DNA of 39,063 nucleotides, taken from IMG/VR virus record IMGVR_UViG_3300045988_105464, positions 1-39,063 of that record. One strand, given 5' to 3'. Shown one piece after another: positions 37-39,063 of this stretch (the stretch's first letter is position 1; the number at the start of each line of letters is the position of its first letter). This DNA comes from a virus. Under the pieces are notes generated by a model. It made no database searches. It was not told the DNA's origin and worked only from the letters and a program-made list of their open reading frames with translations. The position numbers and the translations under genes were made by a program.

Positions 37-502
37 ACGCGGCCAGCAGGTCACGAAGTTGTTCCGGCGACCGCCGGTTCTTGCTCACGTAGTAAGCGAA
101 CCGCCCGTTCTTGGTGCCGATAGCCGTTCGGGGAGCGCGGTACTTCATATCAGCCCCGCAGTGGACGGGGTTGATCTTCTTCCCGCCAATGATGAGGTGA
201 ACGCACTCCATGTAATTCCGATCCCCGTTGGGCACGGTTTTCACGCCGAAGTCCGCCGGGTCATTCCAGCTGATGGCCCACGCCCGGTAATTGGGGGCCT
301 TGTAGACTTTACCGCCTGTTTTTAGGTGGCAGGCCGGTGTCTGGTTCCGAAGAAAAATGGAGCCATTGCAGATAGCGTCCCCGCCCGCCTCCGCCAGCAT
401 CTTCTTCAGGTTGGCCGTGGTGGAGCGGAGACGCCGCTTATTGAAATAGATCTTCAAAAATTGGAGGTCGGAGAGCGGGACAGTGCCCGCTTTCGTACTC
501 AT
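1..502 (-). CDS. Endolysin, N-terminal segment (phosphodiester glycosidase / NAGPA-like domain). The ORF runs off position 1 and resumes at the window end.
   Basis: ATG at 502..500 follows cGGAGGctcacac and overlaps the holin stop (ATGA). Hand translation gives MSTKAGTVPLSDLQFLKIYFNKRR...SGWDNAIMMDGG. The codon boundary at position 16 matches the frame of ORF 38513..39043. It is absent from the ORF track because it has no in-window stop. Confidence 0.8.
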   Translation of the reverse strand, partial: MSTKAGTVPLSDLQFLKIYFNKRRLRSTTANLKKMLAEAGGDAICNGSIFLRNQTPACHLKTGGKVYKAPNYRAWAISWNDPADFGVKTVPNGDRNYMECVHLIIGGKKINPVHCGADMKYRAPRTAIGTKNGRFAYYVSKNRRSPEQLRDLLAASGWDNAIMMDGG

Positions 503-1092
503 GTGTGAGCCTCCGTATTCTGTTTCCCCTGATCGCTGGCCTGACGGATGGCATCCAGCATATTCTTCACAAAGGCCGGGTAGGGAACGCCCATAATGGC
601 CGTGTTCTCTAAAATACTCAATCCCTCATTGGCGATGAAGAACATACACACCGCGTCCCGTACAAAATCGCTGGAGGTTGCCTGATCCAGTAATGCCCCC
701 ATCCATACCAGCGCCAGCATGACGCACTTCTTCGCCAGCCCCTTGAAGCCCGCGTCGGAACTCAGCGCCCCGGTGCTGCTCTTCCCGGACTTGTGCCAGA
801 TAGCCGCAACCATCCAGCCGGTGGCGTAGTCCAGCACCATGAAGCAGATCAAAACTTTCAGCGCCATGTCCCATCCCCCCAGTGCCTGTGCAATGACGGA
901 GCCTACGGCTGCCAGCCCCGCCAGAATCAGATTTTTGATATGTACCGCGTTCATGTGTACGCTCCTTTCTTGTCTTTTTTGGAGTGGTAATTCCAACTTG
1001 CTTTCGTGCAGTAAAGCATCCCACTCGCAGATAGGGCACACCATCCGCCCCTCCGGGATGATAGCCCCACAGCAGATGCAAGTGTTATTCAT
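499..1092 (-). CDS. Holin (LL-H / toxin-secretion holin family) with an in-frame N-terminal CxxC..CxxC extension and an alternative internal start at 954
   Basis: From the internal Met the sequence reads ...VLDYATGW...GFKGLAKK...FFIANEGLSILENT..., which is typical of this holin family, and has hydrophobic segments. The internal ATG at 954 has RBS AAAGGAG. The upstream ATG at 1092 has RBS AGGAGA and overlaps the stop of the preceding gene. Confidence 0.8.
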   Translation of the reverse strand: MNNTCICCGAIIPEGRMVCPICEWDALLHESKLELPLQKRQERSVHMNAVHIKNLILAGLAAVGSVIAQALGGWDMALKVLICFMVLDYATGWMVAAIWHKSGKSSTGALSSDAGFKGLAKKCVMLALVWMGALLDQATSSDFVRDAVCMFFIANEGLSILENTAIMGVPYPAFVKNMLDAIRQASDQGKQNTEAHT

Positions 1093-2983: not shown

Positions 2984-4657
2984 TTAAGCACCTACCTCCG
3001 TTTTCGGCACTTCGCCGGTCTCGTTGATTTTCCGCTGCAACTGGCCGTATCCGGCCCCGCCCCGAATGGGGACAGTTTCCTCCTCGGTAACAGGCTGTTC
3101 GCCCTCTGCTCCCGGCTGCCCCCCAATCATGGCACGTTCCTGCTGCTGGAGGGCTTGGATCAGCGCCTCCTTGTCGGTGATCTGTCCGGCAGGCAGACGT
3201 TTCAGGTATTCCACCGTGGAAATCTTGCCCTGCATCAGCAGGTTATCAAGGGTCTGCATAGCGGCAATCTCGCTCCAGTAGGAAGCCGCGCCCGCGTCCA
3301 GTCCAATGGTGAAGGGGATCTCCTTCAGGATGGAGAAATCAAATGGAACCACCAATTTACTGGTGTCATAGGGGTTGGAGATCTCCACATACCGTTCTCC
3401 GTAGTATTCGCCCATGAACTCCATGTAGATGCGGCCCAGATCCTCAATGCTCTGCAAGAGGTTCTGCTTCGTCAGCTCCATGGGCGTTGCCGCCGCCCGC
3501 TGCAAGGCGATAATGGCGGAAGTGTTGTCCGGCCTGGTATCGCCCAGCGCCACGTCCGACGCGCCGAGGAACTTCTGCGTGTAGCTGATGGCAATGTCGA
3601 TAAACTGGCTGATCTGGGGGGAGATGCTGGCGGGGTCAATGATCTTCGCCACGCCTTCCACACTGCCGTTTACCGGAATAGCCCCGCCGATCTTGTTCGT
3701 CCACTTGGCTACCTTGGTGGAATCGTATACCACCTTCGGATAGGCCAGCGTCATCAGCGAGATCATGGACATGGCGAACAGCTTATTGACAAAGATCTGG
3801 TTGGGCAGCAGGCCGGTAATCATGGCCTGTCCGTGATAGCAGTCCTGCACATAGTCCCAGTTCATCCACGTCAGGGGGTACAGCTTAATGCCGAGATCCA
3901 GATCGCCCCGAATCTCCGCCTGCCGGGTACACTCATAGGCGTGGACGGTGCCAGTCTCGTCATCTTTCCACAGCCGGAGCAGCACCGTCACCTTGTTGCC
4001 GCTGCCGCTCATGGAATCCATGTAGTTGTTGCCGCAGTCCTTGTTGTCCGGCTGGATCTCGTCCGGGTCCTTGCCGTACCGCTTGGCCCGCTTCCGGGCC
4101 TCACTCAGCAGCATCCGCCGTTCCAGAATGATGTAGGGCTGGCTCTGCACGTCCCGGTTGTTGGGATTGCCGAACAAAACCTGCGTGTTCATCAGAACTT
4201 CCGTGCGGATGGCGCCCTTGCTGGCCTGCCCGGTCTCCGCCGTATCGTCCCAGTAGGTATACATACAGCCGTCACCATCCACGGCGGCATTGCGGGTATA
4301 CTCCCGGATGCGCCCGCCGATGCTGTTGTGCTCAAAGATGGACGCGAACTGATCGTTGAGAATGTCAGCCACCCGCTCCAGGGTCTGCGTGTTCCGCTCC
4401 CCGCTGGAGGACATGGCCCGCGCCCACAGCTTTAGATTGTCCGTGGAGATATTCGCCACGGAGAACAGCACCACTCGCTTCAAGAAGTTGAATACGGGGG
4501 TGGGGAGGCCGTTGCTCTGCACGCCCTCCCACTGCTTGCCTATGAAGAAATTTTCGTTGGTCTCCACGCAGTCATAGAGGTCAATACCGCTGTTGAAGCT
4601 GATGCCTGCGTTGTATTCCTTTCCGACCCGTTCTGGGGTCATCGTCTGTTTGCTCAT
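2984..4657 (-). CDS. Portal protein (probable)
   Basis: 557 aa. Has an N-terminal NENFFIGKQWEG motif of the type seen in portal/connector proteins and a Gly/Glu-rich disordered C-terminus. RBS AAAGGGG. Confidence 0.65.
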   Translation of the reverse strand: MSKQTMTPERVGKEYNAGISFNSGIDLYDCVETNENFFIGKQWEGVQSNGLPTPVFNFLKRVVLFSVANISTDNLKLWARAMSSSGERNTQTLERVADILNDQFASIFEHNSIGGRIREYTRNAAVDGDGCMYTYWDDTAETGQASKGAIRTEVLMNTQVLFGNPNNRDVQSQPYIILERRMLLSEARKRAKRYGKDPDEIQPDNKDCGNNYMDSMSGSGNKVTVLLRLWKDDETGTVHAYECTRQAEIRGDLDLGIKLYPLTWMNWDYVQDCYHGQAMITGLLPNQIFVNKLFAMSMISLMTLAYPKVVYDSTKVAKWTNKIGGAIPVNGSVEGVAKIIDPASISPQISQFIDIAISYTQKFLGASDVALGDTRPDNTSAIIALQRAAATPMELTKQNLLQSIEDLGRIYMEFMGEYYGERYVEISNPYDTSKLVVPFDFSILKEIPFTIGLDAGAASYWSEIAAMQTLDNLLMQGKISTVEYLKRLPAGQITDKEALIQALQQQERAMIGGQPGAEGEQPVTEEETVPIRGGAGYGQLQRKINETGEVPKTEVGA

Positions 4658-6531: not shown

Positions 6532-7917
6532 TTATCCGTAGGATAGATAATCAGCGGTCATCTCCCCGCCCGTCATCACGTCATCGTAGTCCTCGCCCTC
6601 GTCAAAATCGTCCACGATCTTCTCCGCGGTTTTCTGGGCACCCAACACGCGGGTGACACAGAAATACCGGGCAGCGTCGCAGATGTGGGTGATCTCATGG
6701 GGCTCCGTGGCGCAGTCCGAGGGGGTTTTCTCGTCATGCTGGATGGAGGGCAGGTTGCGGATCAGGCCCACGCAGTTTTCCGTCACCAGAAGTCCGGGCC
6801 GGTCCGTGTCGCTCTTCATGGGCTTCAGTAGCTCCTTGACGGCCATCCATCCCTGAACGCGGTTGTTGCTGGCCTTCAGCAGCCCCAACCCGTACTGCGC
6901 GAAGATCTCCGCCATGCTCCGCCCGCTGTCCTTCTGCCGGTTCCACATATCCGGCGGGGCAATGGTGAACTCAATGTGTTCTTCCGGTGGGGTCAGGGCA
7001 TTTGCCAGCTTTGCCGCCTCGCTGACGATCAAGCCGCTTTGCTGTACCTCCCGGTACACATAGGCCCGCCCCTCAAAGTCCACCGCCACCCAAAGGCAGG
7101 CGAACATATCAAGGCCGTAGTCGAACGCCCGGTATTTCTTCCACTCACGAGGCACCCGAACAAAGGGTGCGATCACATGGGTCTCCCGCCGAAACTCCGG
7201 GAAGAACGTGCCTGCCATGGCGTTCCAGTCACCGTAACGCCACGCTCGTCGTACATCCTCCGGCAGCAGGTCCAGCATTTGCTTGTACTCCGGGGACGCC
7301 TCCAAAAGCTGGGGGTTATCGTCCACCGTGGCGGGGATGAAGGTGTAATCCTTGGCCTTTTCCCCCTCTCGGTATTCCCGATCCACGAACAGCCGCTTTA
7401 CCCACAAGTGCCCGATACCACCGGGGTTGCAGGTCAGGTACATCCGCCGGGGGAACTTGGTCGCGCCACGCAAACACGCGCCCAGTGTGCGGAACTGGGA
7501 TTCCGAGAACTGAGTGGCCTCCTCCATGAAGATCCAGTCAAACTCAAGGCCCTGATATTCCTGATCGTCTCCCGCGCCGTAGTGGCCGAACTTGATGATG
7601 CTGCCGTTGCAGAAGAACATCATGCGCATACTGCCGTTGTAACTGCCCACCTCCGGCGGGATCAGCTTTTGCATGGGCAGGATGATGTTCTGTTCCAATT
7701 CCGGGTACTCCCGGCGCACGATCAGGATCTTGATGCCGGGGTAAGTGAGCGCGCCGCCTGCCGCCTTCCGCAGCAGAACGTGTGTCTTTCCGCCGCCTCT
7801 GGCGCCGCCGTAAGCCGTGTACCGGCTCCGGGACTGGCAGAACTTCTTTTGCTTGGGGTTCAGCGTCCCCAAATCTACCTGCACCGTTCCGCCTGCTGTC
7901 TGTTTATATCGAGGCAT
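6532..7917 (-). CDS. terL: Terminase large subunit
   Basis: Walker A motif GGARGGGKTH and Walker B-like DWIFMEEA. The C-terminal part has acidic nuclease-type residues. 461 aa. RBS AAGGAG. Confidence 0.9.
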   Translation of the reverse strand: MPRYKQTAGGTVQVDLGTLNPKQKKFCQSRSRYTAYGGARGGGKTHVLLRKAAGGALTYPGIKILIVRREYPELEQNIILPMQKLIPPEVGSYNGSMRMMFFCNGSIIKFGHYGAGDDQEYQGLEFDWIFMEEATQFSESQFRTLGACLRGATKFPRRMYLTCNPGGIGHLWVKRLFVDREYREGEKAKDYTFIPATVDDNPQLLEASPEYKQMLDLLPEDVRRAWRYGDWNAMAGTFFPEFRRETHVIAPFVRVPREWKKYRAFDYGLDMFACLWVAVDFEGRAYVYREVQQSGLIVSEAAKLANALTPPEEHIEFTIAPPDMWNRQKDSGRSMAEIFAQYGLGLLKASNNRVQGWMAVKELLKPMKSDTDRPGLLVTENCVGLIRNLPSIQHDEKTPSDCATEPHEITHICDAARYFCVTRVLGAQKTAEKIVDDFDEGEDYDDVMTGGEMTADYLSYG

Positions 7918-8007: not shown

Positions 8008-9060
8008 TCACTCGTAATCCTTGGTGCCCTCGATGCCCACGCAGCCGTCCTTGGTGCCAACAGCCCGCATGGTCTGACCAGCGGTCAGAGTCACAGCGGC
8101 GGTGTAGATCTTGGCGGTGGTGGAATACCGGGGGTTGGTACCGTCGGTGGTGTACTTGAACACCACACCGGACACGGCGGTAATGCTGACGGCATGGCCG
8201 GTGATAGACATCGTGGGAGCCGCCAGAATGGCAGCATTGCCGCAAACGGCAACACCGTCGCCCTTGGCGCCCAGCACGAAGCTGTCATAGTAGGTCACGC
8301 CCTGCACCACGGGGCCGGAATAGCCCTTCACCTTGGGCAGAATGTCATACTGCGCCAGCTTCACGGGGTCCACGGTGCTGCCCTTCCACTTGATGAAGAA
8401 GTACACACCGGTGGGCATATAGCGGTCGGGGATGTTCTTCACCCGGCAGCCGTCGAACTGGCCCACCACGCCTCTGGTCAGGGTCTCCTTGGCAAGACTT
8501 TCGGTGCCCAGCCAGGCGGGATCCTGCTTCAGCAGCTTGTAATAGCTGGTGGCAATGTACAGGGTGCGGTTCTCCATGGGCACCAGGGCGTTGGTCATAT
8601 CGGCGTTCAGGTCGATAATCAGGCCGCCGATGGTACTCTTGGTGGGGGCGGTTGTCTCCTGACGCTGGATATTAGCGCCCATCACCCACTTCTTGATGCG
8701 GTGGCGATCCATGTTGGGGGTGGTCCGCTGCTCCAGCTGACGCCGCAGGGCGCGGGAAGCGGATTTCTCAATGGCCTGATCCGTCTGATCCACCGCGTCG
8801 ATGGTGAAGGAGAAGGCGGGCTTCTGCTCGCAGGTCATCTCCTGCTGGGTGTCGCCCAGGTCATAGGTAGTGCCGAATCGGTTGTCGCCGGTGTTGGTGT
8901 ACTCGGTCTCCGGCACAGTGTCCACGCTGCCAACGACAATAGTCTTGCTGTTGGGGCCGGTCCAGGTGTATGCCTTACCGGCATCGTCGTCGGTGATAGA
9001 AGGCTTAGAGAAAGCCTCCGCGATCTTGGTTGCGTATTTAACAGCGTAATTGATAGCCAT
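8008..9060 (-). CDS. Major capsid protein with a C-terminal Ig-like (chitobiase/Fn3-associated type) domain
   Basis: 350 aa, immediately downstream of the scaffold-like gene. The C-terminal sequence VVFKYTTDGTNPRYSTTAKIYTAAVTLTAGQTMRAVGTKDG resembles the CHB_HEX_C-type domain. Confidence 0.8.
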   Translation of the reverse strand: MAINYAVKYATKIAEAFSKPSITDDDAGKAYTWTGPNSKTIVVGSVDTVPETEYTNTGDNRFGTTYDLGDTQQEMTCEQKPAFSFTIDAVDQTDQAIEKSASRALRRQLEQRTTPNMDRHRIKKWVMGANIQRQETTAPTKSTIGGLIIDLNADMTNALVPMENRTLYIATSYYKLLKQDPAWLGTESLAKETLTRGVVGQFDGCRVKNIPDRYMPTGVYFFIKWKGSTVDPVKLAQYDILPKVKGYSGPVVQGVTYYDSFVLGAKGDGVAVCGNAAILAAPTMSITGHAVSITAVSGVVFKYTTDGTNPRYSTTAKIYTAAVTLTAGQTMRAVGTKDGCVGIEGTKDYE

Positions 9061-11032: not shown

Positions 11033-11566
11033 TCACTTGAAGTCGCTTGCGTCCACGCCGTCCCCAAAGGTCACGTTCACGCTGATGTCCTGGCGGGTCT
11101 CCTGCTTGTCCTGATAGCCGCCCAGGCGCTTCTGCTTGTTCAGGAAAATGCCTCGCGTCACCATGCCTTTTTCCTGGTAGATGGGGCTGGTGTCGATCTG
11201 CTCCTGAATGCGCTGATAGGCCAGCCGCACGTAGTAGCTCATGACGCAGCGGGGATCGTCGATCTCCTCATTGCCCGCTTCAAAGGCTTCCACCTGTGCC
11301 TCGACCACATCGGCCTCCCGGCCATCGTTGTAGTCATAATACCCCTGAAGCCGCTGAACCGTCCATCGCATCGCATTGGCAAGGCCCGCCTCGCTGTATG
11401 CCTGCTCCAGCCGGTCCTGCGTGTCAAAGTATTCCTCGGATCCCTTCAGGAACGCCTTGATCTTCTCAATCGTCTGCTTCTTGTGGGCCGCGGCGGCTTT
11501 CTTGTGCATGTTGTCCATGTGCGCCTTGTGCTCTTCCGCAGTCGGATTTTTCTTCTGATAAGCCAT
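11033..11566 (-). CDS. Hypothetical protein, candidate small terminase by position only
   Basis: The ORF-track ORF 11033..11803 is trimmed to the ATG at 11566 (RBS GAGGGGG) because its N-terminal 79 codons read through two tRNA-type sequences. 177 aa, charged and helical. Confidence 0.55.
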   Translation of the reverse strand: MAYQKKNPTAEEHKAHMDNMHKKAAAAHKKQTIEKIKAFLKGSEEYFDTQDRLEQAYSEAGLANAMRWTVQRLQGYYDYNDGREADVVEAQVEAFEAGNEEIDDPRCVMSYYVRLAYQRIQEQIDTSPIYQEKGMVTRGIFLNKQKRLGGYQDKQETRQDISVNVTFGDGVDASDFK

Positions 11567-11593: not shown

Positions 11594-11665
11594 TGGCGCA
11601 GACGGCAGGACTTGAACCTGCGCATACCTCCGGGCGCGGTGCTCTACCGGCTGAGCTACGTCTGC
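11594..11665 (-). ncRNA. tRNA-like element with a truncated, non-canonical anticodon arm (72 nt, CCA encoded)
   Basis: GCAGACG-TA-GCTC-AGCCGGTA-GAGC...GCAGG-TTCAAGT-CCTGC-CGTCTGC-G-CCA. The acceptor, D and T arms are canonical. Only 19 nt (ACCGCGCCCGGAGGTATGC) lie between the D and T arms, so no 5-bp stem with a 7-nt loop can form. Confidence 0.6.
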
Positions 11666-11758
11666 AAATGTCCCCGCCATGGTACGTATCGTCGAGAGGC
11701 GTGGCGAGGGCTTCACCGGTCTTTCCCGGTTGCCAGCAACGAACTGTCCTGTCCCGGA

Positions 11759-11834
11759 TGGCGGTCCCGGCAGGGATCGAACCTGCGACCCAGCGGTTAA
11801 CAACCGCTCGCTCTTCCGACTGAGCTACGAAACC
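11759..11834 (-). tRNA. tRNA-Asn(GUU): tRNA-Asn (anticodon GTT), CCA encoded
   Basis: Hand fold: GGTTTCG/TA/GCTC-AGTCGGAA-GAGC/G/AGCGG-TTGTTAA-CCGCT/GGGTC/GCAGG-TTCGATC-CCTGC/CGGGACC/G/CCA. 76 nt. Confidence 0.9.
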
Positions 11835-12355
11835 ATGCTCCGGTGGGCTGTGTGGACCCACCGGGCAACAGGAAAGGAACTGAAGGTGAAAAATGGCATC
11901 TGACACAGGAGGCAGGCGGGTTCTATCCCGCCAACTTCATTCAAGCATATTTCATCAAGCGAATACAATGGGTTTCAGTTATTTTCGTAATGTTCTACAT
12001 AAAATCCCCCGCCCCCTTTTTCCGCCACCCCCCAGAAGGAGCACCGGCATAGCTTCCCGCAGCTACACTGCAAGTTCTTGGAGGGGGAGAGGGGATGTGT
12101 GTATATCAGCCCTATACTCCGCGCGAGAGACACCCCCTGTTTTTCCGCTACCCCCTAGTACACCCCCTCCCCGTCCCTGGTAGTAGGGCCTCCCCAGCGG
12201 CAGAGACTACCGCCCCAGCCCCGGAGCTGCTGAATCGCCCCAGCCAGCCGGAGCCAACAACAGGGATTGCCCAGACCGGGAGAGGAAATACACAGAATCG
12301 ACACAGCAACAGCCGAAAGCCAGCAGTCCCAACGGAAATATTTAATAGCCCCTTA

Positions 12356-12451
12356 AATCTCACCGGAAGAGGGTAATTGCCGCAATCTCACAATAACTCC
12401 GAATATCTCGCAAATGTTCCGTTTTGCTCCCGTTTTCTCTCGTTATCTCGC
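12356..12451. repeat. Four phased ATCTCRC boxes (iteron-like)
   Basis: atctcac at 12356 and 12385; atctcgc at 12405 and 12445. Spacings are 29, 20 and 40 bp, close to multiples of a helical turn. Confidence 0.5.
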
Positions 12452-12508
12452 GTTTTTTATTCGCTTCGTCTCTTTCTTTCGCTACTCTCTCGGTAGAGTA
12501 TATATATA

Positions 12509-12547
12509 ACACCCCCCTGTAAGAAATATATATTTATCTCTCTGGGG
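12509..12547. repeat. Palindromic element A (ACACCCCCCT-N8-TATATAT...GGGG), related to element B at 22767
   Basis: acacccccctgtaagaaatatatatttatctctctgggg. C-run and G-run arms flank an AT core. The 10-mer acacccccct is shared exactly with 22767..22776. Confidence 0.6.
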
Positions 12548-12656
12548 TAGGTGGGAATACGCCCCCATCTCTCACTCTCCTATTCTCTCCCCCTATAGTC
12601 CCCCTCTCCTTCCCTCTCTCTCCCTGCCCCCGCTGCCGCTGCTGCCGCCCCGCTCA

Positions 12657-12694
12657 CAAAGAGAAAAGCGCCGGGGGTGTTATCCCTCGACGCT
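12657..12694 (-). terminator. Rho-independent terminator of the RHH gene
   Basis: Minus-strand RNA: AGCGUCGAGGG-auaaca-CCCCCGGCGCU (11-bp stem with one mismatch and one wobble), followed by UUUUCUCUUU. Confidence 0.6.
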
Positions 12695-12704
12695 CTGTCG
12701 CTCA

Positions 12705-12881
12705 TTACAGCTTGTCCCGGATGGCCTCAATGATCCAGGCGTTGACGCTCTGGCCTGCGGCGGCTGCTGCCGCTCTGATCTGGGCCTTGGTTGGTGGCTC
12801 TGTCTTACTCGTCATTACCACGATGCGCTCTTGATTTTCTTTCTGCCATATATTCCGCCGATCTGGCTTTCTTTCCTCCAT
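12705..12881 (-). CDS. Ribbon-helix-helix (CopG/Arc-like) DNA-binding protein, 58 aa (below the ORF-track cutoff)
   Basis: Hand translation: MEERKPDRRNIWQKENQERIVVMTSKTEPPTKAQIRAAAAAAGQSVNAWIIEAIRDKL. It has a beta-strand (RIVVM) then a two-helix pattern, and ends in the G.S.N.WI.EAI motif typical of RHH proteins. It has its own promoter and terminator. Confidence 0.6.
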   Translation of the reverse strand: MEERKPDRRNIWQKENQERIVVMTSKTEPPTKAQIRAAAAAAGQSVNAWIIEAIRDKL

Positions 12882-15669: not shown

Positions 15670-15887
15670 TTCACAGTACGTTCACAGTATAGCCAGAAAT
15701 CCCACTGAAATCCTCATAAAGTGTTAACAGATGGTTATTTATTCACCATCTACGCCTTATTACATCAGCCTGCACAAAAGCCCATCAAACCACGCAATTT
15801 CAACGCTTCCGGTGTTTTTTAGAATTGCGTTTTGATGTAACCTGATGTAGAAAAATTGAATAAAAACTTCACAGTAACTTCACAGTT
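15670..15887. other. attP-like region: two pairs of TTCACAGT arm-type direct repeats flanking an imperfect palindrome
   Basis: ttcacagta at 15670, 15681 and 15868, and ttcacagtt at 15879 (11-bp spacing within each pair). Inverted arms tacatcag/ctgatgta (15761/15842) and catcaaaccacgcaatt/aattgcgttttgatg (15783/15823). The region abuts the integrase 3' end. Confidence 0.5.
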
Positions 15888-16974
15888 GCGAGACGGGTTT
15901 CTCGTCGAAATACGCCGTCAGCTTTTCGGCTGCCGTCTGCCTCCGGTCCTGCCGCAGATGGGTGTAAACCGCCTCCACCACCTCCGGCGTATCGCCCAGC
16001 AGCCCAGCCGCCTGTCTGGGGTCAAGCCCCGCCTCATAACAGATTGTCGCAAAGCTATGCCGGAAGCAGTGCGGCGTGATGGGAAACGTCTCCACCGTCT
16101 CGCCGTTTTCGCCCTGCTGGATCTGATTCAGGCCCACGTCCCGGCAGTAGTGCCGCCACTCCCGCGTGATCTCGTGGGGCCGCATATAGCCCCCATCGTC
16201 ACCGGGGAACAGCAACCCGATCCGGTTTTTCGGCAGTGCCGCTGCCAGAGGCGGCAGCAGGGGAATATCCCGCAGGCCGTTATCCGACTTCAGATGATTT
16301 TCCAAAACCGGCTTGGTGGTTGCGTAGTTGATCTTTTTGTCGATGTGGATCACGCCAGCTTTGCGGTCGATGTCACGATACGTCAGCGCCAGCGCTTCAC
16401 CCCGGCGGCATCCGGTGTAAAGCAGTAGATACCCGAACAGCCACCAGCGCGCCGTCTTAGCCTCGCCCGCCGCCCGAACGGCCTCCTCTTGCTCTTCCGT
16501 CAGCGCCTCCCGCTTTTTGCAGGGCAGACCCCGGCTCTTCTTAACCTCCGCCGCCGGGCTGATCCGAATATCGCCCTTGATGACGGCATGGGTGAAGATC
16601 ATCCGACAGACGGCAAGCTCAATGCCGACGCTGTTTGCGCTGCGGCCCTGCGCCTCAAAACGCTTGATGTAGTTCCGCACATCTACCGGCTCGATCTCTG
16701 ACGCCCGCCCCGGAAACGCCTCTTTCAGACGCTTCACAGCGTAGCTGTATACCCGCCGGGACGATTCGGAGATCTCGCTTTCATGCTCTCGCTCCCACTC
16801 GTCCGCGATCACCGGGAAATTCCGGCCTTTCTCCGCCTCCAGCTTGTACTCTAATATCTTGCGGTCTACCTCTCTGTCAGTCTTGCCGCGAAACGCTACC
16901 CGCTTGCCATTGATGGTGCGGATTGCCTCGTGCAGCCCGTCCTTGCGGACGCCATATTTACTTTTCTTCGCCAT
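15880..16974 (-). CDS. int: Tyrosine recombinase / phage integrase
   Basis: 364 aa. The C-terminal catalytic region has YTGCRRGEAL (Arg), HCFRHSFAT (H-x-x-R) and VEAVYTHL (Tyr). The N-terminal part resembles SAM-like/arm-binding domains. Confidence 0.9.
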   Translation of the reverse strand: MAKKSKYGVRKDGLHEAIRTINGKRVAFRGKTDREVDRKILEYKLEAEKGRNFPVIADEWEREHESEISESSRRVYSYAVKRLKEAFPGRASEIEPVDVRNYIKRFEAQGRSANSVGIELAVCRMIFTHAVIKGDIRISPAAEVKKSRGLPCKKREALTEEQEEAVRAAGEAKTARWWLFGYLLLYTGCRRGEALALTYRDIDRKAGVIHIDKKINYATTKPVLENHLKSDNGLRDIPLLPPLAAALPKNRIGLLFPGDDGGYMRPHEITREWRHYCRDVGLNQIQQGENGETVETFPITPHCFRHSFATICYEAGLDPRQAAGLLGDTPEVVEAVYTHLRQDRRQTAAEKLTAYFDEKPVSQL

Positions 16975-17013: not shown

Positions 17014-17469
17014 CTATACTGTGGTTGATCCTCCTTTGGCTTTGTCGTGATTGCGATTGGTGGTATCATCTGCCGTCTGAGTGTTCCAGCACTCAGACGG
17101 CTTTCTATTTATCCTATGTACTATGTACCGGATCGCGCCCCAGCCCCCGTGAGTAGCGTCCAGATAGAGCAGCAGCAGAAAAACCAAAAGGGAAACGAGA
17201 ACCCCGAACAATACCCGCTTCTCCCACTGTTGCTGGCGGATCAGCCGCCGCAGATCGTCGATGTGAGCGGCGTAAATGCCATGGTCATCGTCCTGTTCAC
17301 TGTTCCGCAACACCTCCAGAATCTTTTCGGCCATATCATCCGGCGGTTTCGCCGCGCCGGAAATGTAGCGCGATACCATACTTTCTGATACATTGCACTG
17401 CTCGCCGATCTCCCGCAGCGTCAGCGGGCTTTTCATGCGCATTGCGCGGGCTTTTTCCGAAAAGTTCAC
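17014..17469 (-). CDS. Membrane-anchored HTH (XRE-like) protein
   Basis: GTG at 17469 follows AAGGAGG with an 8-nt spacer. HTH segment LTLREIGEQCNVSESMVSRYISG, then one TM segment VLFGVLVSLLVFLLLLYL. Confidence 0.65.
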   Translation of the reverse strand: MNFSEKARAMRMKSPLTLREIGEQCNVSESMVSRYISGAAKPPDDMAEKILEVLRNSEQDDDHGIYAAHIDDLRRLIRQQQWEKRVLFGVLVSLLVFLLLLYLDATHGGWGAIRYIVHRINRKPSECWNTQTADDTTNRNHDKAKGGSTTV

Positions 17470-18069: not shown

Positions 18070-18076
18070 TAAAAAT

Positions 18077-18126
18077 ATCTTGACAAGATGAAATAAATGA
18101 GTATAATGAAATTATCTTGAAAAGAT
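18077..18126. promoter_or_regulatory. Operators ATCTTG-a-CAAGAT (18077..18089) and ATCTT-gaa-AAGAT (18114..18126)
   Basis: The first is a perfect 13-bp palindrome overlapping the -35 of the rightward promoter. The second lies just downstream of its -10. Confidence 0.7.
18080..18107 (+). promoter_or_regulatory. Rightward early promoter (cro side)
   Basis: TTGACA (18080..18085), 16-nt spacer, TATAAT (18102..18107). It lies 36 nt upstream of the ATG at 18144. Confidence 0.75.
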
Positions 18127-18143
18127 GAATTGAGGTGACAAAA

Positions 18144-18350
18144 ATGAACGCAAATATGTTGAAGGGACGCCTCCGCGAAAAGGCCATGACACAAGCCGAC
18201 CTTGCCCCTCAAGTCGGACTGAGCCTGTCCAGATTCAACGCTAAGTTAAACGAAACTGGCGGTGCTGAGTTTTCTCTTGGCGAAGTCCGCGCGATCAAGC
18301 GCGTTTTGGGTCTGGATCAGGAACAGACGGAGCAAATTTTTTTCTCCTGA
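18144..18350 (+). CDS. Cro-like HTH regulator
   Basis: ATG at 18144 follows GAGGTG with a 6-nt spacer. HTH segment MTQADLAPQVGLSLSRFNAKLN. 68 aa. Confidence 0.7.
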   Translation: MNANMLKGRLREKAMTQADLAPQVGLSLSRFNAKLNETGGAEFSLGEVRAIKRVLGLDQEQTEQIFFS

Positions 18351-18372
18351 AATTATCTTGAAAAGGTGAATT
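18348..18372. repeat. Second copy of the 25-bp operator-containing repeat (first copy at 18107..18131)
   Basis: tgaaattatcttgaaaagGtgaatt versus tgaaattatcttgaaaagAtgaatt, one mismatch. The two copies flank the cro-like gene. Confidence 0.85.
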
Positions 18373-19622: not shown

Positions 19623-19830
19623 CGCAGCGGAATGGAAGGGCCGCGAATCGTTCAGCAATGCGACGGCAAAGCCATGTAACGCAAAGATCGGCCACGGCAA
19701 TGCTATGCGATGCTGGTAACAGCAACGGCAAAGTAGTGAAGCGCTTAGCAAAGGCAATGCACAGAGTAGCAATGCAATGCAATGGAGGAGCGAAGTTGCG
19801 TACTGCTAAGAACAGCAACGGAATGGAATA
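19618..19830. repeat. Intergenic cluster of short direct repeats (GCAATGC x5, ACGGCAA-type x4, AACAGCAACGG x2, CGGAATGGAA x2)
   Basis: gcaatgc at 19655, 19697, 19754, 19769 and 19774. aacagcaacgg at 19718 and 19811. cggaatggaa at 19628 and 19819. Confidence 0.7.
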
Positions 19831-19916
19831 GATCTGCTCGGCAGTGCGGCGGCTTAGATTAGCTATACCCCGCCCAATCAATCGCGATCACGACAAAACA
19901 AAAGAAGGAGGCCCCT

Positions 19917-21538: not shown

Positions 21539-22254
21539 ATGAACTCGCCCTGTACCAATACAACGCCGCCGCCCTGACGGTGGCCCCCGTCCCCCGCTCC
21601 GGCAATTACACCATCTGCGCCCCAGACGGCGCGCCCGCCGTCCTGAAACGCGGCATCGACTTCGGCATGATCCGAAAGAAGAACGGCGACGCCATGACGA
21701 AAAACCCCACCCTCTTCAAGTCCGGCGCGGAGAAGGTGGCCGTGGCCTACGGCCTCTGCCAGCGCTACACCTTGGAAAGCAAGCTGGAGGACATCGAGCA
21801 TGGCTTTTTCTATTTCCTTGTCCGCTGCGACCTTATCAAGATCTATGACGGCAAGGAATACGTCATTACCTCCGCTTACGGCTCCGGCAACACCCGCGAG
21901 GGCCGCACCGGCTCCCAGTCCCCCTATGACGGCGCCAACAGCGCGGTCAAGATGGCTCAGAAACGCGCCCTGGTCTCCGCCGCCCTGTCCCTCGGCTGCG
22001 TCTCCGATATGTTTACGCAGGACATTGAGAGCGACACCGAGGATGGCAGCGCCTACATGACCAACAAGGACCCCAACGCCCCCATTACCGCCGCGCAGGT
22101 CAAATTCTTCTATTCTGCTTGTTCCCGCCACGGCCTGACGAAGCAGGAGGCGAAAGCCCTCTTGAAGTCCCACGGCTATGACAGCGCCAGCAAGGTACTC
22201 AGCAAGGACTTTGACGCCCTTCTGGATGCACTGGAACCGAAGGAGGATGCCTGA
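21535..22254 (+). CDS. Single-strand annealing recombinase (ERF/Rad52-like superfamily, family not resolved)
   Basis: 239 aa. The segment DGANSAVKMAQKRALVSAALSLG resembles the conserved helix of ERF/Sak-type annealing proteins. The gene is flanked by the nuclease and SSB genes. Confidence 0.55.
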   Translation: MNELALYQYNAAALTVAPVPRSGNYTICAPDGAPAVLKRGIDFGMIRKKNGDAMTKNPTLFKSGAEKVAVAYGLCQRYTLESKLEDIEHGFFYFLVRCDLIKIYDGKEYVITSAYGSGNTREGRTGSQSPYDGANSAVKMAQKRALVSAALSLGCVSDMFTQDIESDTEDGSAYMTNKDPNAPITAAQVKFFYSACSRHGLTKQEAKALLKSHGYDSASKVLSKDFDALLDALEPKEDA

Positions 22255-22670
22255 TGTTTATGAACGGACTGCCCACCTACAGCAAGGAGGGCAAACAGCT
22301 GAAAACCGGCCTGATCGTGGGCCGCGCCGCCAAGGGCGGCCAGATCTACGCCACCCAGAGCGGAAAGGAGGTCGGCTCCGTCTCCGTACCGGCCTACGAT
22401 AAGCAGGACGGCACCACCGCATGGCTCACCGTCAAGGGCTGGGGCCATTGGGCACGGCTCCTTGCCAATGTCCGCAAGGGCGATTCCGTATTCGCCGTGG
22501 GCCGCGTGGAGAGCCACGACTATGAGGGCAAGACCTATAACGATTTGGTGGCGGATTACGTCTGCGTTTCTGCCAGCACCGCTGGACAGACCACCGCCCA
22601 AAGTGCCTATGCCGCCCCCGCCCCCAATAATTTCACCGAAATTGAGGATGACGGGGAGCTTCCTTTTTAA
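22254..22670 (+). CDS. ssb: Single-stranded DNA-binding protein
   Basis: OB-fold-like N-terminal domain, a low-complexity linker, and the canonical acidic tip EDDGELPF. Confidence 0.85.
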   Translation: MFMNGLPTYSKEGKQLKTGLIVGRAAKGGQIYATQSGKEVGSVSVPAYDKQDGTTAWLTVKGWGHWARLLANVRKGDSVFAVGRVESHDYEGKTYNDLVADYVCVSASTAGQTTAQSAYAAPAPNNFTEIEDDGELPF

Positions 22671-22766
22671 CAGCTTTGCCGTGTGTGTCTAAAGAATGAT
22701 GACGGGCGGATGCAAGCAAGCCGCAGCACGATCACCGACATCCCCGGCAAAAGAAAAAGCCCCCCC

Positions 22767-22809
22767 ACACCCCCCTAAAGAAAATATATATATTTCTCTT
22801 AGGGGGGGG
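22767..22809. repeat. Palindromic element B (ACACCCCCCT-N8-TATATATAT...GGGGGGGG), related to element A at 12509
   Basis: cccccctaa/ttagggggg form perfect 9-bp outer arms around an AT-rich core. Sits in the 176-bp gap before gene 22847. Confidence 0.6.
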
Positions 22810-22846: not shown

Positions 22847-23251
22847 ATGAAAAGAGAAGATATCCAGAAGCTGTTTAACCTGATAGAAACCCTCTATCCC
22901 AGTGCAAAGAAAAATCCCAGGATCCCCGCAGTACTGGAAGCCTGGGCGCTTGTATTGGAGCCGTGGAGCTATGAGGACGCAAAGCAAGCAGTCATTATTC
23001 GTGCCAGGGAAAACCGCTTCCCGCCGGACGCTTCCGAGCTTGTCCCCTACCTACCGAAACCGGAACAGCCTTCGGAGAATGCTCCAGAACCGGCGGAACC
23101 AACCCCCGCCCAACTGGAAAAGTTCTATGTGAAATGCAAAGCCCTGCATGAGCGGTGGAAATCCGCAGGCATCCCCACCCCCTCCGAAACGAAGAAACAG
23201 GGGATGACTTATGCGGGCTGGGAATCGATAGCGAAAGGAGCTGGTGTGTAA
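22847..23251 (+). CDS. G39P-like helicase loader / replisome-organiser-type protein (tentative)
   Basis: N-terminal KLFNLIETLYPSAKKN...VLEAWALVLEPWSYEDAKQAV...PPDASEL resembles the loader/inhibitor-of-G40P family pattern. Confidence 0.45.
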   Translation: MKREDIQKLFNLIETLYPSAKKNPRIPAVLEAWALVLEPWSYEDAKQAVIIRARENRFPPDASELVPYLPKPEQPSENAPEPAEPTPAQLEKFYVKCKALHERWKSAGIPTPSETKKQGMTYAGWESIAKGAGV

Positions 23252-23729: not shown

Positions 23730-23859
23730 GCTTGTGATTGACATGCAGGAGGACGGCGACCTGCTGGCCTGCAAGGAGACGGTTGCTATGCTGCTGGAGC
23801 CCATCGGCCGGGTGCGTATCGTGCAAATCATTGTAGACGGAAAGGAAGAAAAACGATGA
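23722..23859 (+). CDS. Hypothetical 45-aa protein
   Basis: GTG at 23722 lies 6 nt after GGAGG (the ATG at 23716 has no spacer). Its stop overlaps the ATG of the repeat protein. Confidence 0.4.
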   Translation: MVRLVIDMQEDGDLLACKETVAMLLEPIGRVRIVQIIVDGKEEKR

Positions 23860-24461
23860 AAATTGATAAACTGTGGAACGGCCTGAAGCGGATCGCCAAC
23901 GGCGATTATGTGCTGGAAGGGGATCTGATCTCCGAAGAAACCATCGAAATCGATCTGAACGACCGCTTTGTGGTGAGGGGCCGCATCCAGACGAAAAAGA
24001 GCATTGTTGTTCGCTGTGGCATCGAGGCTGGCGATGGCATCAAGGCTGGATGTGGCATCGAGGCTGGCTGTGGCATCGAGGCTGGCGAGGGCATCGAGGC
24101 TGGCTGTGGCATCGAGGCTGGCTGGGGCATCAAGGCTGGATGGGGCATCGAGGCTGGCGATGGCATCAAGGCTGGATGTGGCATCGAGGCTGGCGAGGGC
24201 ATCGAGGCTGGCGATGGCATCGAGGCTGGCGAGGGCATCGAGGCTGGCGATGGCATCAAGGCTGGCGAGGGCATCAAGGCTGGCGAGGGCATCAAGGCTG
24301 AAAAGTTTATTGATGTTCAAAAGCGCATTTTCGCCGGAATTTCGGTTTATCGGACAAGCAGGGACTGCGATAAAACCATCCGCTGTGCGGAGCTGCGGAA
24401 CGGCGAAATCTGCTATGGAGATTTGACGCTGACGAAGGAGGGCAAGCCGGATGAAGGTTGA
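23856..24461 (+). CDS. Acidic hexapeptide-repeat protein, 16 x G-I-(E/K)-A-G-x, predicted beta-solenoid
   Basis: 201 aa. After an N-terminal 54 aa the sequence is GIEAGD GIKAGC GIEAGC GIEAGE ... GIKAEK. The C-terminal 50 aa are non-repetitive. Confidence 0.8.
   Translation: MKIDKLWNGLKRIANGDYVLEGDLISEETIEIDLNDRFVVRGRIQTKKSIVVRCGIEAGDGIKAGCGIEAGCGIEAGEGIEAGCGIEAGWGIKAGWGIEAGDGIKAGCGIEAGEGIEAGDGIEAGEGIEAGDGIKAGEGIKAGEGIKAEKFIDVQKRIFAGISVYRTSRDCDKTIRCAELRNGEICYGDLTLTKEGKPDEG
24018..24300 (+). repeat. 18-bp tandem repeat, about 16 copies (ggcatcgaggctggcgat consensus)
   Basis: Read directly. The repeat is open in several frames on both strands, which explains the stacked ORF-track entries here. 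Confidence 0.95.
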
Positions 24462-29226: not shown

Positions 29227-29427
29227 ATGGAGGATCGGGACAAAAAACTGCTGAAAACCTATGCGGAGAACGACATGAGCATGAAAAAGACCGGCGGCGT
29301 GGTTTACCTGCACTACAACTCCATCCGCTACCGCTTTCAGCTTATTCAGAGGGAAACCGGGCTGAACCCACGGAATTTTTACGATCTGGAAAAGCTGTTA
29401 GCCATGATAGACGCGCAGGGGTCCTGA
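29227..29427 (+). CDS. PucR-C/CdaR-type HTH regulator (small)
   Basis: RBS AAAGGAGG. LHYNSIRYRFQLIQRETGLNPRNFYD matches the HTH_30 pattern. Confidence 0.6.
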   Translation: MEDRDKKLLKTYAENDMSMKKTGGVVYLHYNSIRYRFQLIQRETGLNPRNFYDLEKLLAMIDAQGS

Positions 29428-29480
29428 CCACCTGCATCGGTAGATCAAAGGGGAGGGGCACTTCGTAAAGGAGGCCCATT

Positions 29481-29699
29481 ATGAAATACCGATACACCGT
29501 CCAGCAGCTCCAAAAAATGGAGCGCTGCCGCTATCTCACAGACCGGGAGCGGCGGGTGTTCAACCTTGTTTGCCGCCGTGGCTGGGCAATCGAGGATGCG
29601 GCGGCAGAGCTGTACCTATCCCGCTCCGCTGTGGCCGCCTGCCTTCGTTCCATTCGGAATAAAGCTGGCATATCCCCTCCAAACAAAAAACATCCTTAA
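29481..29699 (+). CDS. Sigma-70 region-4 / LuxR-type HTH protein (late-gene regulator candidate)
   Basis: RBS AAAGGAGG. LTDRERRVFNL...GWAIEDAAAELYLSRSAVAACLRSIRNK. Confidence 0.6.
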   Translation: MKYRYTVQQLQKMERCRYLTDRERRVFNLVCRRGWAIEDAAAELYLSRSAVAACLRSIRNKAGISPPNKKHP

Positions 29700-38512: not shown

Positions 38513-39063
38513 TTATCCGTTCCAATCCGAGCGGGTTTCCCGGACGTCGATATGCGTGAAGCTGCCATAAATCCCCACGCCGCCCCAGTCCGGCATCAGC
38601 GTCCGGGCATAAGCCGCCACCGCTGCCGGTGTCTGCCCCTTCACGGAAATGTCCGCCGCCGTGCCATAACAGTGCTGGCTGTGGGCTGCGCCGTCCACCT
38701 GCTTGTTATACTGCGGCGTGCGATAGGCGCTGTGAATGATCACCGGAACGCCAAAGTGGCTGCGGATGCTCTGCAGCACCATCACCAGCCGGGGCGCCAC
38801 CAGCACGGCATCGGAGCCGTCCTTGCAGGCAAACTCGCTGACCTTGAAATTGCCGGACAGCTTCTTGCCGCCGTCCTTCGCCTTGGAATAGGCGTTGATC
38901 TCTACCATAGGTTTCTCTCCTTCCGGCTCATTGTCTGCGCTCTTGTACTTCCACACCAGGAAGAACGGGATCACCCGCCCATCCCCAGTGAATCCTTTGC
39001 CCTCGCTGTCCATGAAGCAGGCGCTTCCGCCTCCGTCCATCATGATGGCGTTGTCCCAGCCGG
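38513..39063 (-). CDS. Endolysin, C-terminal segment (peptidase M15A-type zinc D,D-/L,D-peptidase domain), continuous with 1..502
   Basis: FKVSEFACKDGSD...IIHSAYRTPQYN...HSQHCYGTAADISV...FTHIDV carries the H/D/H zinc ligand layout of M15 peptidases. The frame is continuous across the 36-bp overlap, giving a joined length of 338 aa. Confidence 0.8.
   Translation of the reverse strand, partial: GWDNAIMMDGGGSACFMDSEGKGFTGDGRVIPFFLVWKYKSADNEPEGEKPMVEINAYSKAKDGGKKLSGNFKVSEFACKDGSDAVLVAPRLVMVLQSIRSHFGVPVIIHSAYRTPQYNKQVDGAAHSQHCYGTAADISVKGQTPAAVAAYARTLMPDWGGVGIYGSFTHIDVRETRSDWNG
39028..39063. repeat. Terminal 36-bp identity with 1..36
   Basis: See the first feature. Confidence 0.95.

Follow-up and report, generated by a model that had tools for sequence, protein, structure and literature searches.

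Two short, related elements of a 39-kb temperate gut phage, here called A and B, are copies of a single motif that is real, conserved and specific to one phage family, and each of them lies in one of the two large internal non-coding control regions of the genome, a placement that agrees with the original interpretation and is conserved across the family. In kind they are an ordinary phage regulatory motif. What they do we infer from sequence: tentatively, and with rather less than even confidence, we read both as DNA-level modules of promoter regions that have a poor -35 sequence and would depend on a phage factor, with A serving the late transcription unit and B the replication or middle unit. 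The core of the original prediction, regulation through the DNA itself where transcription units begin, is still the best reading, whereas the rigid dimer, the extended -10, the conserved hairpin and the common orientation that came with it were not supported.

The phage genome and its relatives

The window (the whole stretch of DNA that was analysed, 39,063 nt) carries the same 36 bases at positions 1-36 and 39028-39063, and this exact overlap of the ends shows the genome to be circularly closed, with a length of 39,027 bp. Its genes and the features around both elements are collected in Table 1. No close cultured relative was found, TerL identity being at most 35% (Arthrobacter and Bacillus phages), and the comparisons below rest on about 60 related IMG/VR contigs that are near-complete.

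Table 1. Positions of the two elements, their neighbouring features and the main genes in the window
Feature	Position	Strand	Remarks
Structural and lysis genes	about 12.5 kb down through position 1, on to 30.4 kb	-	
Holin-family match	499-1092	-	
Portal	2984-4657	-	structural block
TerL (large terminase)	6532-7917	-	structural block
Major head protein	8008-9060	-	structural block
First late ORF	11033-11563	-	177 aa in relatives' gene calls; head of structural block
Second tRNA	11597-11665	-	Rfam alone
tRNA-Asn	11759-11834	-	ARAGORN
Non-coding stretch	11835-12477	-	about 640 nt between A and the tRNA genes; G-rich, conserved
Conserved block CTACCGAGAGAGTAGCG	12478-12496	-	just downstream of TATACT
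Second TA run	12497-12508	-	abuts A; on the late strand ends TATACT (12502 to 12497)
Element A	12509-12547	+	ACACCCCCCT-GTAAGAAA-TATATAT-TTATCTCTCT-GGGG; starts ACA-C6-T
Polypurine (GA-rich) tract	12548-12657	-	variable (GCR)n; conserved upstream of every A-site cassette type
Terminator-like hairpin and T tract	12658-12693	-	GCGTCGAGGGATAACACCCCCGGCGC then TTTTCTCTTT; after the 58-aa gene; kept in relatives; read by eye, not flagged by the terminator scan
Ribbon-helix-helix-like gene	12705-12881	-	58 aa; weak HicB/TacA matches below Pfam cut-offs
Canonical promoter of 58-aa gene	12936 to 12907	-	TGGACA-18-TATAAT
Tyrosine integrase	15880-16974	-	
HTH repressor-type genes		-	same strand as integrase
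Early promoters, canonical	18080		TTGACA-16-TATAAT
Rightward operon	about 18.4-30.4 kb	+	nuclease-like gene, ssb, helicase-loader-like gene, RusA and, at the end, two small HTH genes
ssb	22254-22670	+	last recombination-block gene, left of B
Non-coding block	22671-22745	+	75 nt directly after the ssb stop; nearly invariant across all B types
Element B with upstream C7 run	22760-22809	+	C7-ACA-C6-T, AAAGAAAA, (AT)5, TTTCTCTTA, G8
Element B	22767-22809	+	ACACCCCCCT-AAAGAAAA-TATATATAT-TTCTCTT-AGGGGGGGG
TA core of B	22784-22794	+	ends TATATT (22789-22794)
134-aa protein	22847-23251	+	first gene right of B; N-terminal match to phage helicase-loader family
PucR-type HTH_30 gene (gp66)	29227-29427	+	end of plus-strand operon
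Sigma-70 region-4-like gene (gp72)	29481-29699	+	end of plus-strand operon

Two copies of one asymmetric motif

The letters and architecture ascribed to A and B were confirmed at both positions, as were the perfect 9-bp outer arms of B (CCCCCCTAA at 22770-22778 and TTAGGGGGG at 22799-22807). The two elements align without gaps at 79% over 39 nt; a pattern derived from both copies matches at A and B only, where 0.01 matches would be expected in the window, and TATATAT is confined to A, B and the TA run that abuts A, with 10 overlapping hits against 0.79 expected. The similarity between A and B is far beyond chance. A profile built from all variants in the family likewise finds exactly two copies in the window, in line with the claim that no further similar element is present.

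The orientation of the copies was not the one proposed. Profile scores are 51.8 and 46.4 bits on the plus strand against 29.4 and 15.5 bits on the minus strand, and in pairwise comparison the plus strand of A aligns to the plus strand of B better than its minus strand does for types B1, B1b, B2 and B3 (see below). Both copies therefore lie on the plus strand as direct repeats, though the gene blocks that they precede lie on opposite strands, and A is thus antisense to the late genes, so that the two elements do not share a layout relative to transcription. The conserved unit is itself asymmetric and consists of ACA-C6-T, a purine tract, (TA)3-8 and T(T)ATCTCT.

With only two copies per phage genome, the motif lacks the many dispersed copies that characterise a mobile palindromic repeat of the MITE or REP kind. 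A scan of 185,579 species genomes for copies in hosts or mobile elements returned 15 unrelated chance matches, and in a relaxed viral scan the module was found in this phage family only, plus a few chance hits. Mycobacteriophage stoperators and the start-associated sequences of cluster K are repeated many times in a genome, with fixed sequence and orientation. Like them, the module is a family-specific short motif at the starts of gene blocks, recognisable solely by comparison within the cluster; unlike them, it has two copies and variable repeat tracts.

Conservation at B

Element B was confirmed to lie in the 176-nt gap between ssb and the next plus-strand gene, and the module occupies the interval between ssb and the loader-like gene in 33 of 33 protein-anchored syntenic loci as well as in further pattern-anchored loci. 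We typed this site in 53 contigs and distinguished four types by what comes after the TA run. The left half is the same in all 53 (C6-10, ACA, C6-7, T, AAGAAGAAA, (TA)3-8, T(T)ATCTCT), even while the gene downstream falls to 61-77% identity, and every TA core ends TATATT. To the right, five sites, of the same type as the window, have an adjacent run of G8-11 (B1/B1b); in 24 the TA run is followed by ATTGGCAGGGGG and the G-run is displaced (B2); two have new inner arms, CACACAC and GTGTGTG (B3); and in the remaining 22 the G-run is absent, with a (GCT)n(GCA)n palindrome in its place (B4). Since the G-run is adjacent in only 5 of 53 sites, the palindrome of C-run and G-run is a lineage-specific form of a conserved asymmetric motif, and it appears to be incidental in most relatives.

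Run lengths are polymorphic even among relatives whose surrounding 100 nt are identical (TA 3-8, C 6-10, G 8-11). The repeat lengths at B vary in non-multiples of three, so no conserved reading frame is possible, and a small ORF across B was excluded on this ground. Several contigs end in or next to TA runs (L040, L043, L044 and L002); we considered that these might be physical DNA ends, for which assembly failure at variable TA and homopolymer tracts is the simpler account. Such tracts break metagenomic assemblies here, and contig ends at these sites are not to be taken as genome termini.

The non-coding block that directly follows the ssb stop codon is conserved more than the genes on either side, which diverge. 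Cumulative GC skew reaches its minimum at about 22.7-23.3 kb, at B, and is positive to the right; its sign switches at B though the genes on both sides are on the plus strand, and such a change within a co-directional gene block suggests a unit boundary. A Rho-utilisation site upstream of B was rejected, the excess of C over G there being unexceptional for the operon. Downstream of B, relatives of types B2-B4 carry TTAG-N3-CTAA boxes followed by GACTTCTACGGAAGTC (L053, 2935-2975), a sequence expected to fold, immediately before the ribosome-binding site, into a 6-bp stem capped by a UACG tetraloop; the window, of type B1, has GTAC-N7-GTAC where these relatives carry GACTTCTACGGAAGTC.

Cassette exchange at A

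On the late strand, the 58-aa gene is followed by the terminator-like hairpin, the polypurine tract, A, the second TA run, the non-coding stretch, the two tRNA genes and the ORF that starts at 11563. A does lie upstream of the leftward late genes, as had been claimed, although it is 940 nt away from the first late ORF, with the non-coding stretch and both tRNA genes intervening. The block at 12478-12496 may be the start of the late leader. In the non-coding stretch itself (11835-12477), relatives have indels whose lengths are not divisible by three, and gene calling leaves it empty in them; a non-coding RNA or a long structured leader may lie here. Read on the plus strand, 12548-12657 is a polypyrimidine tract of about 110 nt, the late strand showing several G5 runs and a variable GCN repeat. 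Between the two tRNA genes, the abiF RNA motif scored 34.9 bits at 11672-11708, just under its gathering score of 37.

Typing of this site in 44 contigs yielded five cassettes that replace one another within conserved flanks, in the interval bounded by the polypurine tract and a box that is likewise conserved. The type of the window, A1, accounts for 23 of them and has its ACAC6 strand antisense to the late genes; in A2 (10 contigs) a module of the same kind is inverted; and A3-A5 (11 contigs) have no C/G palindrome and instead carry arrays of TTAG-N3-CTAA or of 10-bp phased TTAG boxes. The module is therefore dispensable at A. Absence from otherwise syntenic relatives had been named in advance as an outcome that would speak against the elements, and it was seen at A, in these 11 of 44 typed contigs, and never at B.

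What stays constant at A is the box next to the module. The sequence (TA)nTACT followed by CTACCGAGAGAGTAG is present in all A types except A5, and the late-strand TATACT is kept in nearly all relatives, the only variants being TACACT and TATATT; both fit TAnnnT, so the -10 pattern is preserved. A TACTCT/AGAGTA inverted repeat (12483-12500) overlaps TATACT. The A4 sequence AGAGAT(TA)nTACTT aligns with AAAGAT(TA)nTTT of B2, which ties the TA core of B to the late -10 box. In the relatives, TTAG-N3-CTAA boxes occur almost exclusively beside TA runs, at both sites, which indicates protein binding at both loci; the window has none.

A types and B types assort freely, and gp66, gp72 and gp227 (a neighbouring 227-aa gene) are conserved with any cassette, the first two of them in all relatives. 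A search for the cognate factor by co-variation brought out no partner. The HTH pair at 29227-29699 may encode phage transcription factors; as the predicted source of the factor they are neither linked to the palindrome nor excluded. A DNA signal acting on one strand, for priming or packaging, was suggested by the orientation of both window copies on the plus strand and was rejected, the A copy being inverted in A2 relatives.

Element A was also considered as an attachment site. Contig IMGVR_UViG_3300045988_071519 (L001, L002) has A at both ends with different outer flanks, which hinted at attL and attR; it starts 5 nt before A and ends 45 nt after a second copy, whose flank is found in no other locus, and this could be a strain-variant join or a misassembly. 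The attachment site lies elsewhere: in an integrated copy (L074, 11040-11420) identity to the window stops at about 15721, 158 nt past the stop codon of the integrase gene, and this phage-host junction beside int rules A out. The host flank there has 58% G+C, and there is no tRNA gene at the junction.

Promoter-like signals at both elements

The TA runs end in a hexamer close to TATAAT that keeps its A at position 2 and its T at position 6, namely TATATT on the plus strand at 12529-12534 and 22789-22794, and TATACT on the minus strand at 12502-12497. On the rough home-made sigma-70 matrix that we used, on which genuine-looking early promoters score 14-18 bits, the rightward pair at A (ATAACA at 12506-12511, a 17-nt spacer and TATATT) scores 13.0 bits, which places it among the top ten sites in the window, and the leftward pair (TTCTTA, inside A at 12525 to 12520, then 17 nt and TATACT) scores 11.3 bits. 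The -35 sequences are poor, with 4 of 6 matches to TTGACA for the rightward ATAACA and 3 of 6 each for the leftward TTCTTA and for CCCACA at B. No variant of B has an acceptable canonical promoter on the sense strand (at most 9.4 bits), and if B is a promoter it needs a factor. The extended -10 that had been read as TGtTATATA lies just outside A (12500-12508, minus strand) and loses its TG in several relatives (GGGGGGGATATATATAC); the hexamer that is conserved there is TATACT.

These patterns suggest how the elements might work. The module would act at the level of double-stranded DNA, within promoter regions that need a phage-encoded factor, with the TA runs as an easily melted -10 region and the C-run/ACA block and purine tract as the upstream part. 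At A, the late transcript would start just downstream of the second TA run, which ends in TATACT and is followed by CTACCGAGAGAGTAG, and the module would stand back to back with the late -10 box and cover its -35 region; at B, the module would head the unit that opens with the helicase-loader-like gene. Changes in the lengths of the TA, C and G runs would then shift the geometry of the promoter. Promoter status, start positions and the need for a phage factor are all predicted here from the letters and their conservation. Several observations sit awkwardly with such a role: the module faces away from the late genes in 23 of the 44 typed relatives, as it does in the window, which counts against the promoter reading, and in A and B2 most of the bases at a distance of 6-8 nt downstream from TATATT are pyrimidines, which is unusual for a start site. 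The low scores at B, the 11 of 44 typed relatives without the module at A, and conserved regulators that do not co-vary with cassette type also count against it.

Phage middle and late promoters that depend on an activator or a phage sigma factor, such as the late promoter of T4 (TATAAATA), can have a good -10 while lacking a usable -35. A and B resemble promoters of this type in having an AT-rich -10-like box (TATATT, TATACT) with no consensus -35 at the head of delayed blocks, and in that small phage HTH proteins are encoded here at the end of the preceding operon. They differ in that the box sits in a module of C-run, purines, (TA)n and pyrimidines with variable repeat lengths, that the module at A is often inverted or absent, and that their promoter role is a predicted one. 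If this promoter reading is true, the motif shows where late and middle transcription are controlled in a widespread, uncultured family of temperate phages from the human gut, and these control regions are built of interchangeable short cassettes around a small constant core.

Alternative explanations

The melting behaviour of the elements raises the alternative that they serve replication, their (TA)n cores being DNA unwinding elements or extruded cruciforms at two related origins like oriL and oriR of phage SPP1. Among segments of 12-20 bp, the TA core of B is the least stable duplex of the genome and the core of A is the second, as expected of AT-rich unwinding elements. In addition, B lies beside ssb, directly upstream of the helicase-loader-like gene and at the skew minimum, it adjoins the almost invariant 75-nt block, and the repeated TTAG-N3-CTAA or 10-bp phased boxes of relatives stand beside TA runs at both sites. 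Each of the two SPP1 origins combines direct repeats with an AT-rich unwinding element, and oriR is found in a segment of the late region that also carries moron genes (PMC6316719); the likeness lies in a pair of related AT-rich sites separated by kilobases, of which one belongs to the replication module and the other to the late region, near moron genes and transcription signals. The SPP1 origins, however, are defined by direct repeats that gp38 binds, whereas the A and B regions of the window share no such repeats, nor any words or repeated boxes other than the module itself, and a gp38-like gene was not recognised.

An origin function is credible but unlikely. Among the genes tested, no origin-binding protein or replicative helicase was recognised, only the helicase-loader-like N-terminus, and the proteins that neighbour B are without a Pfam or PHROG function. 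The box types at A and B assort freely, the A copy is absent in 25% of relatives, and the skew pattern tracks gene blocks rather than two equal replication arms. Moreover, a better iteron-like array is found elsewhere: a 295-nt gap in the early operon (19623-19916) holds direct repeats of GCNACGGCAAWGC at 31-nt spacing (19660-19760) together with GCAATG repeats, and this gap is itself a candidate for a replication origin or a regulator array.

It is quite unlikely, in our estimate, that the elements have no dedicated function and are mosaic junctions in hypermutable low-complexity DNA (TA, C, G and GCN repeats), with palindromes made by slippage or template switching and spread by recombination between the two sites. 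Much of the variation described above would follow from this, namely run lengths that vary among otherwise identical relatives, cassette borders that coincide with the TA run, free assortment of A and B types, contig ends that accumulate in or near TA runs, and a module that 11 of 44 contigs do without at A. Against it, the left half of B is invariant in 53 of 53 typed sites with an adjacent gene down to 61% identity, the late control region has taken up the module in either orientation, and there are exactly two copies, both within control regions.

The original prediction had also offered a palindromic operator, bound on both arms by a dimeric phage regulator at A and B, and this we consider improbable. 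The dyad of B is perfect over its 9 bp, the module extends over the -35 region belonging to the late -10 box, where either orientation is tolerated, and two small HTH proteins are encoded at 29227-29699. A rigid dimer in contact with both arms is nevertheless at odds with arms whose spacing differs by up to 10 bp, through (TA)3-8, among near-identical relatives, and with a right arm that is replaced in 46 of the 53 typed B sites, being displaced in the 24 sites of B2 and absent in the 22 of B4; moreover, the HTH genes stay constant while the A cassettes vary or lack the module.

The variable tracts also allow for a variant of the promoter reading, a long shot in our view, in which the TA, C and G tracts would be contingency or supercoil-sensing switches by which the phage sets its own middle and late transcription. 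The geometry of the back-to-back promoters would be altered by slippage, or by cruciform extrusion at the two sites of the genome that melt most easily, and, if so, sibling phages would differ heritably in the timing or level of replication- and late-gene expression. The nearest analogy for TA repeats within divergent promoters is hifA/hifB of Haemophilus influenzae, whose divergent promoters have a (TA)n spacer (PMC2651432). In a similar way, the (TA)n of A lies inside overlapping back-to-back promoter-like signals (12506-12534 rightwards, 12525-12497 leftwards) and its repeat number differs among close relatives; in contrast to hifA/hifB, the TA runs of the phage form the -10 and not the spacer between -35 and -10, and they belong to a phage genome and not to a bacterial contingency locus.

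RNA folding gave mixed results. For the window's B the folding energy is -22.6 kcal/mol on the plus and -28.8 kcal/mol on the minus strand, with z about -2.2 on either, and the window's A gives z of +0.26 (plus) and -1.5 (minus). Against mononucleotide shuffles, the unique variants reach z of -5.4 (B1), -4.8 (B3), -2.8 (B2), -2.2 (A1) and -1.2 (B4); against dinucleotide shuffles, neither A nor the majority type B2 (z -0.4) does better than its controls, and this holds when both are folded as DNA. The proposed conserved hairpin or cruciform is not supported, given that only B1 and B3 fold clearly better than shuffles and that A and B2, under the dinucleotide control, do not. The purine and pyrimidine arms keep some complementarity in all types, and, with the new paired arms of B3 as well, a structural role is weakened but may still exist. 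Scans flagged no intrinsic terminator at A or B, where the sense-strand tails are TGTTATATATA and AGATAGATG, respectively, and no Rfam family fits, B giving weak chance-level hits to miRNA models and A none.

That the elements work as RNA hairpins, whether as RNase III-type processing sites, stabilisers, terminators or nut/put-like antitermination signals opening delayed units, is very improbable: the folding of the window's B and of B1 and B3, the complementary arms of B3, and a palindrome that yields similar RNA from either strand and so tolerates inversion of A are outweighed by the failure of A and B2 against dinucleotide shuffles, by the 22 of 53 typed sites (B4) without a G-run partner, by a sense strand without a U tract after the stem or any terminator-like site, by the lack of an Rfam match, and by template switching, which can create both new arms in one step with no need of selection. 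Lambda nutL/nutR and HK022 putL/putR act as sense-strand RNA with conserved stems. The likeness to them lies in two related short dyad elements that open delayed units, one just ahead of replication genes, and the difference in the antisense position of A relative to its unit and in a stem that most relatives have not kept.

Other repeats in the genome

The immunity region has repeats of its own. The palindrome ATCTTGAAAAGAT is present in three copies flanking the early promoters, each within a 25-nt repeat (18070-18372), two of which lie beside divergent canonical promoters and one after a cro-like gene; these repeats look like immunity operators. An inverted repeat of 31 nt, 87% complementary, with its halves 2.8 kb apart (17029-17059 and 19879-19909), brackets the region. 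Some 23 tandem 18-nt units at 23943-24356 lie within a 201-aa ORF (23856-24461) and encode a (G-I-E/K-A-G-x)n hexapeptide repeat, for which searches of Pfam and PHROG gave no match, and a 38-nt direct repeat of 89% identity (36446-36483 and 36533-36570, 87 nt apart) is found near the start of a 1812-aa ORF.
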